Positions 12,677 through 47,735 of a stretch of 64,000 bases of DNA are shown here, piece by piece. Position numbers and translations under genes: made by a program. Under the pieces are notes generated by a model that saw only the letters and a list, made by a program, of their open reading frames with translations, ran no database searches and had not been told where the DNA came from. Each line of letters begins with the position of its first letter. The first letter of the stretch is position 1. Location of the stretch: positions 64,533 to 128,532 of the forward strand of contig JBDRJF010000024.1 in the NCBI GenBank assembly GCA_043815185.1, written 5' to 3'. The stretch comes from Candidatus Omnitrophota bacterium. GTDB lineage: Bacteria; Omnitrophota; Gorgyraeia; Duberdicusellales; 4484-171.

Positions 12677-12699
12677 GCCTATTTATTCTCTGGATTTTA

Positions 12700-12856
12700 G
12701 GGGACGGTTCTCGTTGCTCTATCCTTTACTCGCACAACAAGTTATAAACGCAGTATTATAAGTCTTTTTAATTAAGGAAATAAGGCATAAGGGATAATAA
12801 TTGTCTGTTCATAATTAATTGGTGTGTAAGGGGTTACAGGCAAGAGAACCGTCCCC
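12700..12856. mobile_element. MITE-like element, repeat family R1 copy 1 (intact)
   Basis: 157 bp with no ORF. 13-bp perfect terminal inverted repeats GGGGACGGTTCTC / GAGAACCGTCCCC (17 of 18 if extended). Flanked by a direct TTA on both sides (12697..12699 and 12857..12859). Confidence 0.7.
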
Positions 12857-12990
12857 TTAAACATCATTAAGACCTTAGCCAATAAATAATTTCAGACTAA
12901 GAATTTGAATCGAATCGGGATACATCCTATTTGAATTTCTCTTACCAGGCTTAGCTTTTTTAAGTGGGATGTGTCCTGAAATAACTGATT

Positions 12991-25103: not shown

Positions 25104-25117
25104 TTTATTATGTTTTA

Positions 25118-25240
25118 GGGGGACGGTTCTCACTGCACTATCCTTTACCGACACAATAAGTTATAATCACACCATTATAAATTTCTAATTTAATTGAAAG
25201 AAAAATCCTTCTTTTTACGTCTATTATAGTAGAGAAAGGA
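25118..25240. repeat. repeat family R1 copy 2 (left end plus conserved body; right TIR not found)
   Basis: Begins with TTA then (G)GGGGACGGTTCTC as in copy 1. About 110 nt are near-identical by eye to copy 3 (CTATCCTTTAC... CATTATAAAT... CTAATTTAATTGAAAGAAAAA... CTTTTTACGTCTATTATA). Confidence 0.65.
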
Positions 25241-26983: not shown

Positions 26984-27772
26984 TTAGCTATTTTTAATCT
27001 GATTAAATAATTCCTGGGCTTCCTTAACCGTAGCTCCTTGGTGGATAATAGCTTGCAAACTCTTAGCCATGGCCACCGGATGAATATTCTGCCAAACATT
27101 TCGGCCTAAGTTTATGCCGATAGCTCCTTTCTGCATACCATCGTAAACAAATTCAAAAACCTCCAGTTCATTTTTACACTTTGGCCCACCGGCCATAACC
27201 ACCGGAACCGGGCAGCCATTCACAACTTTATCAAAATCTTCACACCAATAGGTCTTAACTATTCGCGCACCCAACTCAGCAGCAATGCGGCAGCATAAAC
27301 CAAGGTAACGGGCATCCCGTTTGGCTAACTCCTTACCCACAGCAGTAACTGCCATAACCGGAATCCCATACCTCTCGCATTGATTCACAAGATTGGCAAG
27401 ATTTAGCAGAGTTTGACGTTCATAGTCGCTACCGATAAAAATCGAAATTCCTACCGCAGCAGCATTAAGCCGGATAACCTCCTCTAGGGAAGTAGTGATC
27501 TCCTCATTAGCTAAATCTTTGCCGACTATGCTTGTACCTCCGGATACCCTGAGAATAATCGGTTTAGCATTATCAGGATCGACGGCTGAACGTAATACTC
27601 CCCGGGTCACAAACAGGGCATCACAAAAAGGGAGAAGGGGTTTAATTGTCTCCCCGGGTTTTTCCAAACAGCGGGTCGGTCCCTGAAAATAACCGTGGTC
27701 TATCGGTAAGTAAAAACAGTGACCATCGGGTTTGATAACTTGATTAAGCCGGTTTTTCATTCCCCAATCCAT
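26984..27772 (-). CDS. class I aldolase, DhnA/FbaB/LsrF family
   Basis: 262 aa with PIDHGYFQGP near the N-terminus and an IVKTYW Schiff-base lysine region. GAGGAGGTG SD. Confidence 0.75.
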   Translation of the reverse strand: MDWGMKNRLNQVIKPDGHCFYLPIDHGYFQGPTRCLEKPGETIKPLLPFCDALFVTRGVLRSAVDPDNAKPIILRVSGGTSIVGKDLANEEITTSLEEVIRLNAAAVGISIFIGSDYERQTLLNLANLVNQCERYGIPVMAVTAVGKELAKRDARYLGLCCRIAAELGARIVKTYWCEDFDKVVNGCPVPVVMAGGPKCKNELEVFEFVYDGMQKGAIGINLGRNVWQNIHPVAMAKSLQAIIHQGATVKEAQELFNQIKNS

Positions 27773-27779
27773 ATTTACA

Positions 27780-27957
27780 CCTCCTCAATGAGACTTACGT
27801 TTTCTAAAAGAAAACGTGTAGCCGAATTGACTCCGACGAGCGTTGTAAAATTATGGAACACCCTCTGGAATTTTTTATAAAAAATTCCGAGGACCAAGTC
27901 CCGGGAATTTTGTGAATTCCTCGGGGGAATTTTACAACATCTTCTGCGAGCCGGAGT
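27780..27957 (-). repeat. structured intercistronic element, repeat family R2 copy A
   Basis: Helices: ACTCCG/CGGAGT (27830..35 with 27952..57); GTTGTAAAATT/AATTTTACAAC (27842..52 with 27928..38); hairpins at 27862..27892, 27900..27925 and 27797..27817. Ends in CCTCCTCAATGA, the complement of the downstream SD. Confidence 0.7.
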
Positions 27958-27967
27958 ATAAATAAAC

Positions 27968-29458
27968 TTATCCATACCAATAATTTACTAACGGTTTTGC
28001 ATCTTGGGTAGTGTCTACCACAATATTTTTAAGATGGGTATATTCTAATAAACCTTGATCACCCAATTCTTTACCAAACCCGCTTTGCTTAAACCCACCA
28101 TAAGTGAGCTGATTAAAAAACATACCATAAGTATTAATCCAAATTGTTCCGGCATTAATTTTTGTAGCTATATTTTTGGCTTTTTCAATGTCTTGCGTCC
28201 AAATACAGCCGGCAAGAGCAAAATCACTTTTATTGGCTAAGGCAATCGCTTCTTCCACCGTTGAAAACTTACTGACACAAACTATCGGCCCAAAAATTTC
28301 TTCTTGAAAAATTGGCTCCTGAGGCGAAACTTCGGCAAACACTGTAGGTTCAAAAAAGAATCCTTTTTTTAATTCATTTTGCAAAGGGATCTTACCTCCT
28401 GCCAATAACTTCACACCACGAGCCTTGGCCTTCTTTACATAATTAATAACTTTTTCTCTTTGCCATGGTGAAGCCAAGGGGCCCATTTGAGTCTCAAAGT
28501 CCAGGCCGTTACCTAGCTTAATCCGTTTGACTTTATCAAGGAAATTTTTGATAAATTGATTATAAATACTCTCCTGCACTAAAATTCTTGACATTGCTGT
28601 GCACATCTGTCCCTGGTTTAAAAATATAGAACACAGCGAACCATTTACCGCTAGCTCTAGATCGGCATCTTTCAAAATAATACTGGCAGATTTTCCCCCT
28701 AGCTCCATAATCAACTTCTTTACATTCTTAGATGAATACTCTAAAATCTTTTTCCCGACAATATTTGATCCGGTAAATGAAATCATATCTACTCGTTTAT
28801 CGGAACATAACGGCTTACCTACCCCCTCTCCTGTGCCAGAAATGATATTCACTACCCCCTTAGGCAAACCTGATTGGCCAATAATCCGGGCTAATTCCAA
28901 AACGGTAAGAGGAGTTAAGCTTGCGGGCTTTAAAATAACTGTATTTCCGGCTGCTAAACCTTGTGCCAGTTTCCAAGAAGCAATCAAAAGCGGATAGTTC
29001 CAGGGGACGATTAAACCTACTACTCCTCTTGCCTGAGGCAAGAGCTGAGCTTCTGCGGAGGAGCTTTGAAACTGCACCCTTAAAGTTTTGGCTTTTAAGA
29101 TTCTCTCCAGGTTATTACCAAAATATTTAAAAGTTTCAGCAGCAGAAGGTATATCCATAAAAGTTGATTCCTTAAGCGGCTTGCCGGTATTTAAAGTCTC
29201 CATTTCCGCCAGCTCAGCAGCTTTATCTAATATCCCTTTAGATATCTTAAGAAGAAATTCTTTCCTTTGAGTTAAGGAGATATCAGGCCAAGGCCCTTGA
29301 TCAAAAGCAGATCGCGCAGCTTCGATTGCTAAATTTACATCTTCTCGGGAAGCCAAACTAACCTCGGCTATAATTTCTCCGCTGGCAGGATTAATTATCT
29401 TATTTTTCAATTTCGAATCCCTAAATTCTCCGTTGATCCATAGACTATAGGTCTTCAT
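27968..29458 (-). CDS. NAD(P)-dependent aldehyde dehydrogenase
   Basis: 496 aa with a catalytic Glu block (MELGGKSA) and a Cys block (GQMCTAMSR). Confidence 0.9.
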   Translation of the reverse strand: MKTYSLWINGEFRDSKLKNKIINPASGEIIAEVSLASREDVNLAIEAARSAFDQGPWPDISLTQRKEFLLKISKGILDKAAELAEMETLNTGKPLKESTFMDIPSAAETFKYFGNNLERILKAKTLRVQFQSSSAEAQLLPQARGVVGLIVPWNYPLLIASWKLAQGLAAGNTVILKPASLTPLTVLELARIIGQSGLPKGVVNIISGTGEGVGKPLCSDKRVDMISFTGSNIVGKKILEYSSKNVKKLIMELGGKSASIILKDADLELAVNGSLCSIFLNQGQMCTAMSRILVQESIYNQFIKNFLDKVKRIKLGNGLDFETQMGPLASPWQREKVINYVKKAKARGVKLLAGGKIPLQNELKKGFFFEPTVFAEVSPQEPIFQEEIFGPIVCVSKFSTVEEAIALANKSDFALAGCIWTQDIEKAKNIATKINAGTIWINTYGMFFNQLTYGGFKQSGFGKELGDQGLLEYTHLKNIVVDTTQDAKPLVNYWYG

Positions 29459-32295: not shown

Positions 32296-32421
32296 AGTTT
32301 TAAAAAATTCGAAATTCTAAATCCGAAGCACGAAACAAACTCGAAATCCTAATTTTCAAAATATTAATTTCTCTATTGATGTTTCTTTTTTCGAATTTCG
32401 ATATTCGGATTTCGTATTTAT
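32296..32421 (-). other. 126-nt intercistronic spacer packed with CGAAAT/ATTTCG motifs
   Basis: About eight copies of (T)TCGAAAT / CGGATTTCG-type words in both orientations. Complementary blocks occur in X-Y...X'-Y' order. Confidence 0.4.
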
Positions 32422-40132: not shown

Positions 40133-41380
40133 TTACCTCCACTTCTTAAATACAATCGAAGAATGGATTCCCGAAAATCCACTGCTGGTCTTAAGTATAT
40201 ACTCCGGCATTAATTTCCTCTTTTTATTGGGAATATAATCTAAATCACACTTAGGATCAGGCTCTTCCTGGTTAATCGTCGGTGGAAGATATCCTTTTTC
40301 AAAAATCATACAACATAATACACTCTCTACAGCATTAGCAGCAGCTAAAGGATGGCCGATCATCGATTTAATCGAGCTTATCGGCACCTTATAAGCAAAA
40401 TCTCCTAAAACTTTTTTGTAAGCGTCAGTTTCAAAGACATCATTCTGCCGGGTCGATGAGCCGTGAGCATTTATATAACCAATATCCTCATTCTTTATCC
40501 CTGAATTCTTTATTGCTTCCCGTATAGAACGAGCCATCGGTTCACCGTCTTCAGGCAAATCAGTCATATGATAGGCATTACAACTTGTCCCATAACCAAG
40601 AATTTCAGCATAAATATGGGAGCCTCTCTTCTTAGCATGTTCTAACTCTTCCAATATAAGGATTCCAGCTGCCTCACTAATAACAAAACCATTCCGCTTG
40701 TTATCAAAAGGACGGCTGGCCTTATGAGGTTCCTGGTTATTCTTGGCTAAAACGCTTACCACGTCAAAAGCTCCGAAGGTAATCGGGGTAACCGGAGCTT
40801 CATTGGCTCCGGCAATAATTAGGTCCTGCCTTCCTTCCTGAATAAGCTCATAAGCAAAACCTAAAGAATCAGTTCCGGCAGTGCAACCGGTTGAGACTGT
40901 ACAATTCATTCCCTTGGTCCCATAAATAGCCCCTACCTCTGCGCTGGGAGTATTAAACATAGCAGCATCATAAAGATAAGGCCTTCCCTTCCGGGGATCA
41001 ATCGGGCTCTTACCCCAATCAGTGACTAATAAAAATTCTTCTTCCATAAAACGGGTCCCGCAAATAGCATTGGCTAAGATTACACCACATCTGCGGCGGT
41101 CCAACTTATTAAAATCTAATTTTGCATCTTCCACCGCTCCCTTAGCAGCGGCAATCCCGAATTGAACATACCGATCCATACGTTTATGGTCAGTTATACC
41201 AAACTTTAAAGGGTCGAAATTCAAATCTTGGGAAGCAATCTTTGAAAGGAATAAACTTACATCAAAGTTCTCAACCCTTTCAATACAAGATTTACCCTCA
41301 ATTAGATTGTTGTAAAATTCATTCTTATCTTCTCCGGCTGCGCAGATAACTCCAATTCCAGTAATCACCACTCTCTTCAC
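40133..41380 (-). CDS. ketosynthase alpha, type II PKS-like
   Basis: 415 aa with a GTG start after a GAGGAGG SD. Motifs VSTGCTAGTDS (Cys), CNAYHMT and INAHGSSTRQNDVFET (His/His). Confidence 0.8.
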   Translation of the reverse strand: MKRVVITGIGVICAAGEDKNEFYNNLIEGKSCIERVENFDVSLFLSKIASQDLNFDPLKFGITDHKRMDRYVQFGIAAAKGAVEDAKLDFNKLDRRRCGVILANAICGTRFMEEEFLLVTDWGKSPIDPRKGRPYLYDAAMFNTPSAEVGAIYGTKGMNCTVSTGCTAGTDSLGFAYELIQEGRQDLIIAGANEAPVTPITFGAFDVVSVLAKNNQEPHKASRPFDNKRNGFVISEAAGILILEELEHAKKRGSHIYAEILGYGTSCNAYHMTDLPEDGEPMARSIREAIKNSGIKNEDIGYINAHGSSTRQNDVFETDAYKKVLGDFAYKVPISSIKSMIGHPLAAANAVESVLCCMIFEKGYLPPTINQEEPDPKCDLDYIPNKKRKLMPEYILKTSSGFSGIHSSIVFKKWR

Positions 41381-41388
41381 TTCTCTTT

Positions 41389-41556
41389 CCTCCTCAATGA
41401 TCCGCCTTAGGCGGAGAATTGATCCCGACGAGCGTTACAAAATTGTCGAAGAGAATTTTGTAACATCTTCTGCCCTCTGGAATTTTCCACTGGAAAATTC
41501 CGAGGACTCAGTCCCTGAAATTTCAGCATGTGAAATTTCTAGGGGCGAGTCGGGAT
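41389..41556 (-). repeat. structured intercistronic element, repeat family R2 copy B
   Basis: Outer stem ATCCCGAC/GTCGGGAT (41422..29 with 41549..56) enclosing hairpins at 41434..41464, 41474..41505 and 41513..41544, plus a hairpin at 41401..41415 and CCTCCTCAATGA (41389..41400). Confidence 0.7.
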
Positions 41557-41562
41557 ATATTA

Positions 41563-42168
41563 TTAATCTTTCCTAGCAACTTTAAATACAATGTTCCCGC
41601 CATCCGGGCAGGTTACCGTATCTATAGAATTCTGATTATCCATAAACTGAAATTTTGCTCCAAAATTTAGGGCAAAGAGGGCTGGGAAAGCTGTGTGCCA
41701 GGCTGCTCCGCAGAATCCAGGAATACACTTAAGGCCTTCAATATCCCATTTATCACCAACCTGATACTTATAAAAACACTTAGGCGAAGCCATCCCTTTA
41801 GGGGTACCCTTAGCTTTAATAACCTCAATAACCATCCTCTTGGGGTTCGGGCCCTTATAGTTATGATCTTTAGGAATATTATCGATCTCACCCTGCTTAT
41901 TAAAAATTTCGGCCTTAAACTCTAGTTTCCCGCCATCGGGACAAGTTACTAACAATGACCTTTGATTATCCATAAAAGGGAATTTTGCTCCAAAACTTAA
42001 AGCGTAAATTACCGGAAATAAAGCATGGGCCAGGCCTAAGCAAAAGTGCTTGGGCGGATGGGTAAAATCCTCTAAAATTAATTCATCACCGGCCTTATAG
42101 CCATGGTAACAATCTCCATAAACATTAAGCACTGTTAATTTTAATTTTGGGAAAGGTGTTTTAACCAT
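41563..42168 (-). CDS. tandem-duplicated TIGR04076-like protein
   Basis: 201 aa. The two halves share FC..A....FP...AL.FGAKF.FMDNQ......TCPDGG...FK. The family call is from memory of the CPDG-containing TIGR04076 pattern. Confidence 0.5.
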   Translation of the reverse strand: MVKTPFPKLKLTVLNVYGDCYHGYKAGDELILEDFTHPPKHFCLGLAHALFPVIYALSFGAKFPFMDNQRSLLVTCPDGGKLEFKAEIFNKQGEIDNIPKDHNYKGPNPKRMVIEVIKAKGTPKGMASPKCFYKYQVGDKWDIEGLKCIPGFCGAAWHTAFPALFALNFGAKFQFMDNQNSIDTVTCPDGGNIVFKVARKD

Positions 42169-47547: not shown

Positions 47548-47587
47548 TACGCGGTGCAGATAAAAGAATTACTCTACCCACCGCGTA
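47548..47587. repeat. 9-bp hairpin abutting R1 copy 3
   Basis: TACGCGGTG, 22-nt loop, CACCGCGTA. It holds the same position relative to the R1 left end as the hairpin at 25066..25103. Confidence 0.5.
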
Positions 47588-47592
47588 TCTCA

Positions 47593-47735
47593 GGGGACGG
47601 TTCTCGTTACCCTATCCTTTACCCGCACAACAAGCTGTAAACACACCATTATAAATATCTAATTTAATTGAAAGAAAAAACTTTCTTTTTACGTCTATTA
47701 TAATAAGAGAGGTAAAAAAGAGGAGGGGCGTCCCC
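47593..47735. mobile_element. repeat family R1 copy 3 (left TIR intact, right TIR reduced to CGTCCCC)
   Basis: Starts GGGGACGGTTCTC and ends ...GGGGCGTCCCC. Flanks are TCA and TAA (both TNA). The body is near-identical by eye to copy 2. Confidence 0.65.

Follow-up and report, generated by a model that had tools for sequence, protein, structure and literature searches.

The structured element that fills the gap in front of a ketosynthase (KS) gene in a 64,000-nucleotide stretch of a Candidatus Omnitrophota genome (contig JBDRJF010000024.1; hereafter the window, meaning the whole stretch that was analyzed) is a copy of a dispersed, helix-constrained mosaic repeat that takes its orientation from the downstream gene and fills the space up to the Shine-Dalgarno sequence (SD) of that gene. 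Copies of this repeat are gained, lost, and replaced at single gene junctions and are homogenized within a genome, a combination suggesting that the family behaves as a spreading repeat and not as a vertically inherited regulator. The window holds two copies, copy A before the KS gene and copy B before an aldolase gene. The explanation that we favor, and consider probable, is that of a spreading mosaic leader repeat that supplies the downstream gene with its SD. As far as could be found, the family is undescribed: Rfam 15 at the gathering score gave no family match in the window or in 17 loci with more than 20 family copies, a scan of copy A against Rfam at E<=10 returned noise only, and nothing relevant was found in the literature on Omnitrophota repeats or RNA motifs.

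Two comparative sets were used, namely 41 related KS loci from metagenomes and an exact-pattern scan of 185,579 species genomes with the pattern TCGGRRTCAATTC-N12-42-TCATTGAGG; loci are cited below by their L numbers. The KS homologues at 75-91% identity came from Candidatus Omnitrophota/Omnitrophica wherever the source was named. The pattern scan returned 85 stretches, about 66 of which, in about 34 assemblies, displayed on inspection the architecture P1 / CAAUUC / hairpin / UCAUUGAGG, with a single metagenome-assembled genome (MAG), JAHJHM01, supplying about 20 of these loci. The canonical unit revealed by these copies comprises a body of about 61 nt, formed by helices P1 and P4, followed by a helix P5 that closes around a variable hairpin, HP2, and then by GGAGG and a start codon. 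Within the body, P1 is composed of P1a (AUCCC/GGGAU), a small internal loop, and the GC-rich P1b, and is followed by a 7-9-nt linker (GAAGAUGUU or CUAAAUAUC) and by the AT-rich P4, the loop of which is near CUCUUCGAU. After the body come CAAUUC, HP2, and UCAUUGA, and the repeat ends as UCAUUGA/GGAGG-N5-12-AUG, so that the SD lies directly past the last helix. The core nucleotides are kept across deeply diverged assemblies, and the stems vary. A covariance model free of the SD, built from 44 canonical bodies, gave 77 hits (E<1e-3) in 1.04 Mb of comparative sequence; in the 64-kb window, with filters off, the covariance-model scan detected copies A and B only.

A complete open reading frame (ORF) of at least 60 aa follows 67 copies, and for nearly all matches of the Omnitrophota type the start codon lies about 5-12 nt past the SD. 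The covariance model gave about 16 further hits that were not selected for an SD, and nearly all of these were in the sense orientation and lay either within about 100 nt upstream of an ORF or as the first member of a head-to-tail pair, with a decayed SD. One reading that this arrangement bears on is that of a DNA-level selfish palindrome of the REP/REPIN type or of the miniature inverted-repeat transposable element (MITE) type, in which a transposase or recombinase would recognize the hairpin DNA, with an incidental SD and an orientation bias that is only a product of survivorship. Near-perfect palindromes with wobble pairs that lack strand asymmetry, homogeneity of copies within a genome, presence/absence polymorphism, a mosaic and nested architecture, and the occupation of the same junctions by unrelated palindromes in other lineages are all consistent with such a reading. 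However, nearly every copy has GGAGG directly after UCAUUGA and then a start codon at the proper spacing, and the orientation matches the gene even on opposite strands, as in L091, where copies on the plus and minus strands each follow the direction of their own gene. In addition, all tandem cases (L053, L068, L073, L091, L120, and L125) are head-to-tail with no inverted doublet seen among them, and no antisense family copy was detected in the 1.04 Mb. We accordingly regard the selfish palindrome as improbable.

Upstream, 45 of the 75 unique copies (60%) are intercistronic, with a co-directional ORF whose stop codon lies at a median distance of about 20 nt, and the other copies are situated in leaders. 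The downstream genes are housekeeping genes of unrelated function, and those identified with Pfam encode S9, L21, L35, SSB, HU, transaldolase, PPDK (pyruvate phosphate dikinase), YebC, a Clp ATPase, IlvC (ketol-acid reductoisomerase), a B12-radical SAM enzyme, a polyketide cyclase, FolD, a PilT-type ATPase, ParA, a nucleotidyltransferase, ferredoxin, ASL (argininosuccinate lyase), PFK, and FBA (fructose-bisphosphate aldolase). The sequence-only reading had considered a riboswitch-like sensor common to two genes of one pathway. The two window copies, each directly 5' of an enzyme gene and each with a complex multi-helix fold, would suit a sensor that controls the KS cluster and the aldolase gene. 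The dozens of unrelated downstream genes rule out a pathway-specific sensor, and even the FabF-type KS and the LsrF-type aldolase have no evident pathway in common. Moreover, the KS junction lacks the element in the closest relatives, the extra helices are a nested cassette located at varying positions, the predicted folds leave the SD unsequestered, so that no expression platform is apparent, and no Rfam family matches. The sensor is thus already contradicted, and we give it virtually no credence.

The SD was exposed in the predicted folds. Averaged over the copies, the SD and start codon had an unpaired probability of 0.48, vs 0.32 with the element shuffled, and it was higher with the native element in 52 of 65 copies; in the predicted folds of copies A and B, the SD falls outside every helix. 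By our own reasoning, UGAGGAGG can pair extensively with the usual 3' end of 16S rRNA. Both the accessibility difference and this pairing support the view that a strong ribosome-binding site (RBS) would be left exposed.

Comparison of orthologous junctions revealed the gain and loss of copies. In the closest relatives (L001-L004 and L039; 92-93% KS identity), the KS junction is empty and consists of about 35 nt only, UAACUUUUAUAUUUUAAGGAGGAAAAAUAAGUG, whereas L035 (88% KS identity) carries a canonical unit without the extra cassette found in copy A, and other lineages hold unrelated long palindromes at this position. Conversely, the junctions from the cyclase to Polyketide_cyc2 and from the 264-aa gene to the radical SAM gene are empty in the window and hold family units among L013, L020, L021, L030, L043, L071, and L085. 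Past UCAUUG, the filled sites are homologous to empty sites, and 5' of P1 the sequence is replaced, at times including the stop codon. Ten loci from other Omnitrophota lineages (L010, L012, L015, L023, L026, L028, L029, L031, L036, and L041) showed KS/Polyketide_cyc2 junctions filled by tandem-motif palindromes unrelated to the family, examples of such unrelated junction palindromes being GGATTAAG..., GTCGACAGTCGATAGTC..., and ACGTGATACGTGA...; the phylum seems in general to be given to filling gene junctions with hairpin-forming sequence.

The identity among copies was distributed by genome. Elements in the same genome at different genes had a mean identity of 0.82 (n=197), vs 0.61 (n=11) for elements in different genomes at the same gene and 0.60 (n=2207) for unrelated pairs, and in 10 of 11 comparisons an element was closer to a copy from its own genome than to its counterpart at the orthologous position. 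Because the sequence tracks the genome and not the gene, it bears the hallmark of a spreading or concertedly evolving repeat, which would be unexpected for an inherited regulator. This result weighs on a further explanation, namely a regulon-type leader, in which the P1/P5 junction and the invariant CAAUUC...UCAUUGA would bind a trans-acting factor (a global RNA-binding protein or a small RNA) that co-regulates the translation or stability of many highly expressed genes, with the within-genome likeness arising from co-evolution with the factor or from gene conversion. Such a leader would account for a conserved core with variable stems across deeply diverged assemblies, for covarying helices, for the strict orientation and the adjacent SD, and for the many downstream genes of usually highly expressed types, with PPDK, transaldolase, ferredoxin, Polyketide_cyc2, and the radical SAM enzyme bearing a copy in more than one assembly. 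Yet elements at orthologous positions resemble each other no more than random pairs do, close relatives differ in whether a junction is filled, some tandem copies have decayed SDs, the target genes are functionally incoherent, and a foreign cassette nests at several sites, including P1 and P4, heedless of any binding surface. A regulon-type leader consequently appears unlikely.

Covariation was measured on a 44-sequence alignment, with shuffled controls (n=500) and partner-sliding controls. Standard pairs occupied 92.4% of cells vs 75.4% in the shuffled alignments, and double changes numbered 114 vs 38, a value that none of the 500 shuffles reached; the partner-slid controls had 31-59% of cells paired. 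Among the 44 copies, compensatory changes affected eight of the nine pairs of P4 and two of the five of P1a, and P1 occurs in the variants ATCCC/GGGAT, ATTCC/GGAAT, ACTCC/GGAGT, and ACCCC/GGGGT. P5 is UCAAU/AUUGA in the pattern-selected copies, and its C-G pair is changed to U-A or A-U in about nine others, being UUAAU/AUUAA in L013:5259, L030:3736, L048:5151, L050:5822, L053:2651, L065:4747, and L068:5629 and UAAAU/AUUUA in L028:3056 and L065:3455(-), along with one U.G (L120:172) and one C.A (L053:2559). HP2 comprises at least six unrelated sequence classes of 15-69 nt. Most of the 76 unique copies fold it into a hairpin; a small number of its segments were clipped by the script delimiter and gave no fold. 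A possible pseudoknot between the GAAGA linker and the UCUUC of the P4 loop is confined to one subfamily. P1, P4, and P5 therefore have compensatory support, the same pattern that DNA hairpins would give, and the helices are clearly under selection, although sequence alone does not separate RNA from single-stranded DNA. The copies thus lie neither in random orientation nor without helix covariation, which together the sequence-only reading had named as refuting its interpretation, and no Rfam family matches.

These helices could also serve as an RNA-processing or stability cassette, in which P1 and P4 would form a helix cleaved in the manner of RNase III, or a 3' protective hairpin for the upstream cistron, and P5 with HP2 a 5' protective hairpin for the downstream one, thereby uncoupling the expression of the neighbors. 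RNase III sites between the early genes of phage T7, Correia elements, and the REP stabilizers in malEFG are analogues of such a cassette. Two abutting stable helical domains with no terminator, the share of copies between co-directional genes (60%), and the hairpin directly 5' of the SD agree with this function. In the leaders, however, promoter-like sites lie 12-39 nt upstream of the copies at variable distance from P1, so a fixed promoter spacing, as expected of a 5'-terminal hairpin, is not supported. CAAUUC as a single-stranded site of the RNase E type is ruled out as well, since it pairs with AUUGA and this pair covaries, and the helices are broken by loops and nested cassettes. On balance, we consider a processing cassette rather unlikely as the main explanation.

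Several observations weigh against the favored reading of a spreading leader that delivers an SD. The seed pattern of the scan itself held UCAUUGAGG, so retrieval was skewed to SD-bearing copies, and the part of the orientation claim that is free of this bias rests on the approximately 16 extra copies only. Many copies came from one MAG, which inflates both the accessibility counts and the covariation counts. The sense and antisense folds contained similar numbers of G.U pairs (48 vs 43 and 19 vs 28), with no asymmetry, and the antisense strand folded slightly better owing to loop and stacking composition; because G.U pairs show no strand asymmetry, selection on the hairpins could act on the DNA. 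No footprint of excision was visible, nor was a duplicated target site seen at copies A, B, L035, and L043; what distinguishes filled from empty sites is an exchange of the entire spacer from stop codon to SD. Finally, one copy, L098:5789-5862(-), is the sole copy not located before a protein gene. In this region (L098:5700-5900, minus), the copy borders a fragment on the other strand that is similar to the 5' half of a tRNA-Glu (UUC); ARAGORN detected no intact tRNA there, and the site may be a recombination scar. CATTG was considered as a target-site duplication and rejected, as it flanks the JAHJHM01 copies on both sides and not the copies in general.

Under the favored reading, the element would be transcribed within the mRNA and would survive only where its self-contained fold replaces the native spacer and leaves a strong RBS exposed. 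It would in effect constitute a portable leader or intercistronic junction, the helices of which may additionally act as processing or stability determinants. A wider version of this reading is possible, albeit doubtful, in which the repeat would be a phylum-wide portable translation-initiation cassette that spreads itself, overwrites the spacer between the stop codon or promoter and the SD with a folded leader and a strong RBS, is exchangeable among many Omnitrophota housekeeping genes, may offer a handle for a global post-transcriptional regulator or RNase, and is itself parasitized by the twin-hairpin module described below.

Nearly all ORFs of at least 100 aa in the window lie on the minus strand. 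Copy A occupies the entire 182-nt gap between the stop codon (41563-41565) of a 201-aa ORF and the KS start codon. The KS gene 3' of it is of the FabF family (40133-41380, minus), and the 201-aa ORF 5' of it (41563-42168, minus) encodes two tandem TIGR04076 domains. Internally, this ORF is duplicated in tandem, its DNA repeats being spaced by 330 nt. It has no Pfam match at E<=0.001, and an exact look-up of its protein returned no record. The sense RNA of copy A reached a minimum free energy (MFE) of -74.3 kcal/mol vs -45.2 +/- 4.3 for dinucleotide shuffles (z = -6.76), and none of the 200 shuffles was as good. All helices named in the sequence-only reading were located at the expected positions, and the predicted fold consists of the outer stem, three inner hairpins, and the small hairpin with its pairing flanks UCAAU/AUUGA. 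The complement that had been read as the SD of the next gene is likewise present. The features of copy A are as follows, from the 5' flank to the KS start codon.

41557-41565, minus: AT-rich flank on the 5' side, UAAUAAUAU, which takes in the TAA stop codon of the TIGR04076-type gene.
41545-41556, minus: 5' arm of P1, AUCCCGAC + UCGC, paired in the MFE fold.
41422-41429 and 41549-41556: outer stem, ATCCCGAC / GTCGGGAT, confirmed by sequence check.
41473-41544, minus: nested twin-hairpin cassette, consisting of P2 (41513-41544), the spacer ACUGAGU, and P3 (41474-41505).
41513-41524 and 41532-41544: third inner hairpin, CCCTGAAATTTC / GAAATTTCTAGGG, confirmed by sequence check.
41474-41489 and 41491-41505: second inner hairpin, CCTCTGGAATTTTCCA / TGGAAAATTCCGAGG, confirmed by sequence check.
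41465-41472, minus: linker CAGAAGAU.
41434-41464, minus: P4, the AT-rich hairpin GUUACAAAAUU / AAUUUUGUAAC with loop CUCUUCGAC, in the MFE fold.
41434-41444 and 41454-41464: first inner hairpin, GTTACAAAATT / AATTTTGTAAC, confirmed by sequence check.
41422-41433, minus: 3' arm of P1, GCUCGUCGGGAU, in the MFE fold.
41416-41421, minus: CAAUUC, containing the 5' strand of P5 (UCAAU, sharing the last U of P1) and a UC internal loop, paired with AUUGA in the MFE fold.
41401-41415, minus: HP2, the short GC hairpin UCCGCC-UAA-GGCGGA, in the MFE fold.
41401-41406 and 41410-41415: small hairpin, TCCGCC / GGCGGA, confirmed by sequence check.
41394-41400, minus: UCAUUGA, forming the 3' strand of P5 and the conserved 3' terminus of the repeat.
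41389-41400: SD complement, CCTCCTCAATGA.
41389-41393, minus: GGAGG, the SD of the KS gene, directly 3' of P5.
41378-41380, minus: GTG start codon of the KS gene.

A flank of the type GAUUA(UUA)AUAAU, like that of copy A, also precedes P1 at other junctions (L035, L043, L071, and L063). The linker and the first bases of P4 form a subfamily motif, GAAGAUGUU, that is common to copies A and B and to L035, L043, L049, L051, L056, L057, and L092. HP2 of copy A was considered as an intrinsic terminator and ruled out, as no U-run follows it; no intrinsic terminator or strong promoter was found inside copies A and B.

The second copy that had been noticed in the window is real. Copy B (27773-27967, minus) lies between an aldehyde dehydrogenase gene on its 5' side and a DeoC/LsrF-type aldolase gene on its 3' side, and its fold has a z of -5.98 vs shuffles. 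Its features, in the same order, are listed below.

27946-27957, minus: 5' arm of P1, ACUCCGGCUCGC, starting 10 nt past the aldehyde dehydrogenase TAA (27968-27970).
27928-27938 and 27842-27852, minus: arms of P4.
27861-27927, minus: twin-hairpin cassette, within the P4 loop.
27830-27841, minus: 3' arm of P1, GCUCGUCGGAGU, positions 2-3 of which are compensatory relative to copy A.
27785-27829, minus: CAAUUC, a long HP2 (GGCUACACGUUUUC...GAAAACGUAAGUC, 27792-27823), and UCAUUGA.
27770-27784, minus: SD GGAGG (27780-27784), a 7-nt spacer, and the aldolase ATG (27770-27772).

The HP2 class of copy B recurs in L020, L068, L074, and L100. P1 reads AUCCCGAC/GUCGGGAU in copy A vs ACUCCG/CGGAGU in copy B, a compensatory difference. 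The order of the modules differs between the two: the GTTGTAAAATT/AATTTTACAAC stem surrounds the other two hairpins in copy B and comes after them in copy A, and, relative to the two GGAAUU-type hairpins, the motif GCAGAAGAUGUU-R-Y-AAAAUU is on the 3' side in copy A and on the 5' side in copy B. Both window copies are longer than the canonical unit because of an extra twin-hairpin cassette of about 70 nt, CCCC-hairpin-GGGG-ACUnnGUCCUC-hairpin-GAGGG, which accounts for two of the three inner hairpins originally described. This cassette is located between the 5' arm of P1 and the linker in copy A, within the P4 loop in copy B, L064, and L106, and within the 3' arm of P1 in L048, L065, and L031; in L020 it lies outside the family and is inverted relative to the operon. 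Its varied placement explains the rearrangement between copies A and B, and in this the cassette behaves as an independently inserting unit or a freely recombining module.

The assemblies carrying the family are mostly labeled Omnitrophota, with some Planctomycetia and one Methanosarcinales. Several assemblies labeled 'uncultured Planctomycetia' have family copies, and JAIWAR01 ('Methanosarcinales archaeon'; L057, L088, L099, and L105) has five, located 5' of ORFs for PFK (Pfam) and for a Clp-type ATPase and acetylglutamate kinase (by N-terminal sequence only); the label of this bin looks wrong, or the bin contaminated. The approximately 19 remaining stretches of the pattern scan (Nitrospira, Pelagibacter, Lachnospiraceae, archaea, and others) were set aside, as they are without P1 and the start-codon/SD context and look like chance or coding-sequence matches. 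Four near-identical pattern matches in Nitrospira/Nitrospiraceae MAGs (L052, L095, L101, and L109) are without the SD/start context and are followed by the same conserved sequence; they are taken to be a conserved, probably coding, sequence of Nitrospira and not family members. The one pattern match in viral contigs was rejected, being without the family architecture. In Polaribacter sp. (Bacteroidota; L061:1343-1524, NZ_CANNFH010000001.1), tandem units with ATCCCGAAATAAATTCGGGATCAATTCG fit the P1-plus-CAATTC core and are without the SD context; the match may reflect chance or a distant relationship.

Other structured features were encountered along the way. Just downstream of a family-bearing ferredoxin gene, L091:6278-6359 (minus) matches the c-di-GMP-I-GGC riboswitch RF03167 at 62.1 bits vs a gathering score of 59. 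The large intergenic gaps of the window also hold another repeat family, unrelated to the first, at 12694-12861, 25113-25231, and 47587-47705, and more weakly at 1551-1618; its copy at 12694-12861 (about 168 nt) has inverted termini of about 30 nt (TTTAAGGGGACGGTTCTC...) 107 nt apart and looks MITE-like. A hairpin at 32309-32419 in the window was not significant (z = -0.78).

The family was compared with known repeats and leaders. ERIC/IRU and Correia/NEMIS elements are imperfect palindromes of about 100-170 nt that are transcribed in intergenic regions, fold in the mRNA, and are polymorphic in presence and absence. Their size variants arise by internal insertions and deletions, including insertions of about 70 bp at fixed internal sites of ERIC; they occur in both orientations, have terminal inverted repeats conserved in sequence, with a TA duplication in Correia, and do not end in a downstream SD. 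The present family resembles them as a set of folding intergenic palindromes with size variants and polymorphic presence, and differs in that its outer stem is short (5-12 bp) and covarying, its orientation is locked, and no duplication was seen. Measured against MITEs, the family has presence/absence polymorphism (at the KS junction, J2, and J3) and has no terminal inverted repeats of fixed sequence, its outer stem shifting by compensatory substitution; no parent IS element was found, and no search aimed at one was made. REP/BIME elements are single hairpins of 20-40 nt, often in inverted doublets and in either orientation, mostly 3' of genes, and associated with RAYT transposases. The family is similarly dispersed, extragenic, mosaic-modular, alike within a genome, and often located just past stop codons, whereas its orientation is locked and inverted doublets are not seen; the earlier suggestion of a REP/BIME-like unit carrying an RBS thus holds for the dispersed multi-copy distribution, junction polymorphism, and within-genome likeness, and fails for random orientation and inverted doublets. 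The BOX elements of Streptococcus pneumoniae are assembled from modules (boxA-boxB(n)-boxC), have a predicted stable RNA structure, lie near the 5' ends of genes, and can affect expression. The family shares their modularity (P1/P4, optional cassette, P5/HP2), their predicted stable RNA structure, and their location near gene 5' ends, but the sequences are unrelated, and BOX is neither orientation-locked to a start codon nor RBS-providing. ERIC, Correia, BOX, and REP/BIME are in sum transcribed, palindromic, modular, and polymorphic, are not orientation-locked, and do not deliver an RBS.

With riboswitches and ribosomal protein leaders, the cis-regulatory classes of Rfam, the family shares a structured 5' leader beside the SD, covarying helices, and conserved junction nucleotides; unlike riboswitches, it has incoherent targets, its copies track the genome and are gained or lost between close relatives, no alternative fold sequesters the SD, and Rfam 15 holds no counterpart. 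An attC/integron reading was likewise rejected on inspection, since there is no R'/R'' consensus and the genes on either side are conserved in syntenic order. Conceptually, the nearest relative is MIRU, a repeat found at gene starts in operons, in one orientation to transcription, apparently mobile, and keeping downstream expression (PMC12548453), which it achieves via a small internal ORF translationally coupled to the downstream gene (PMC12548453). The family is likewise intercistronic and in a single orientation relative to the operon. In contrast, its body and HP2 contain no conserved ORF, and it supplies the SD (GGAGG, 5-12 nt before the start codon) after a folded domain; MIRU, moreover, is a direct-repeat variable-number tandem repeat and not a multi-helix palindrome, and its host phylum also differs. 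The family is best filed among intergenic structured repeats, where its strict orientation, built-in RBS, and nested second module are unusual.

Intergenic repeats are usually treated as orientation-neutral passengers. If the favored reading is true, the family described here would instead depend for its persistence on delivering the RBS of the gene behind it. It would provide a natural exchangeable leader or intercistronic junction and a route to study the spread and genome-wide homogenization of translation signals in an uncultivated phylum. Annotators and RNA-motif hunters would be warned not to take the multi-helix leaders of biosynthetic clusters in Omnitrophota, which are generic repeats, for sensors of a pathway. 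As a handy marker, the conserved core (AUCCC...GGGAUCAAUUC-hairpin-UCAUUGAGGAGG) serves for start-codon calling in Omnitrophota MAGs and possibly for bin checks.

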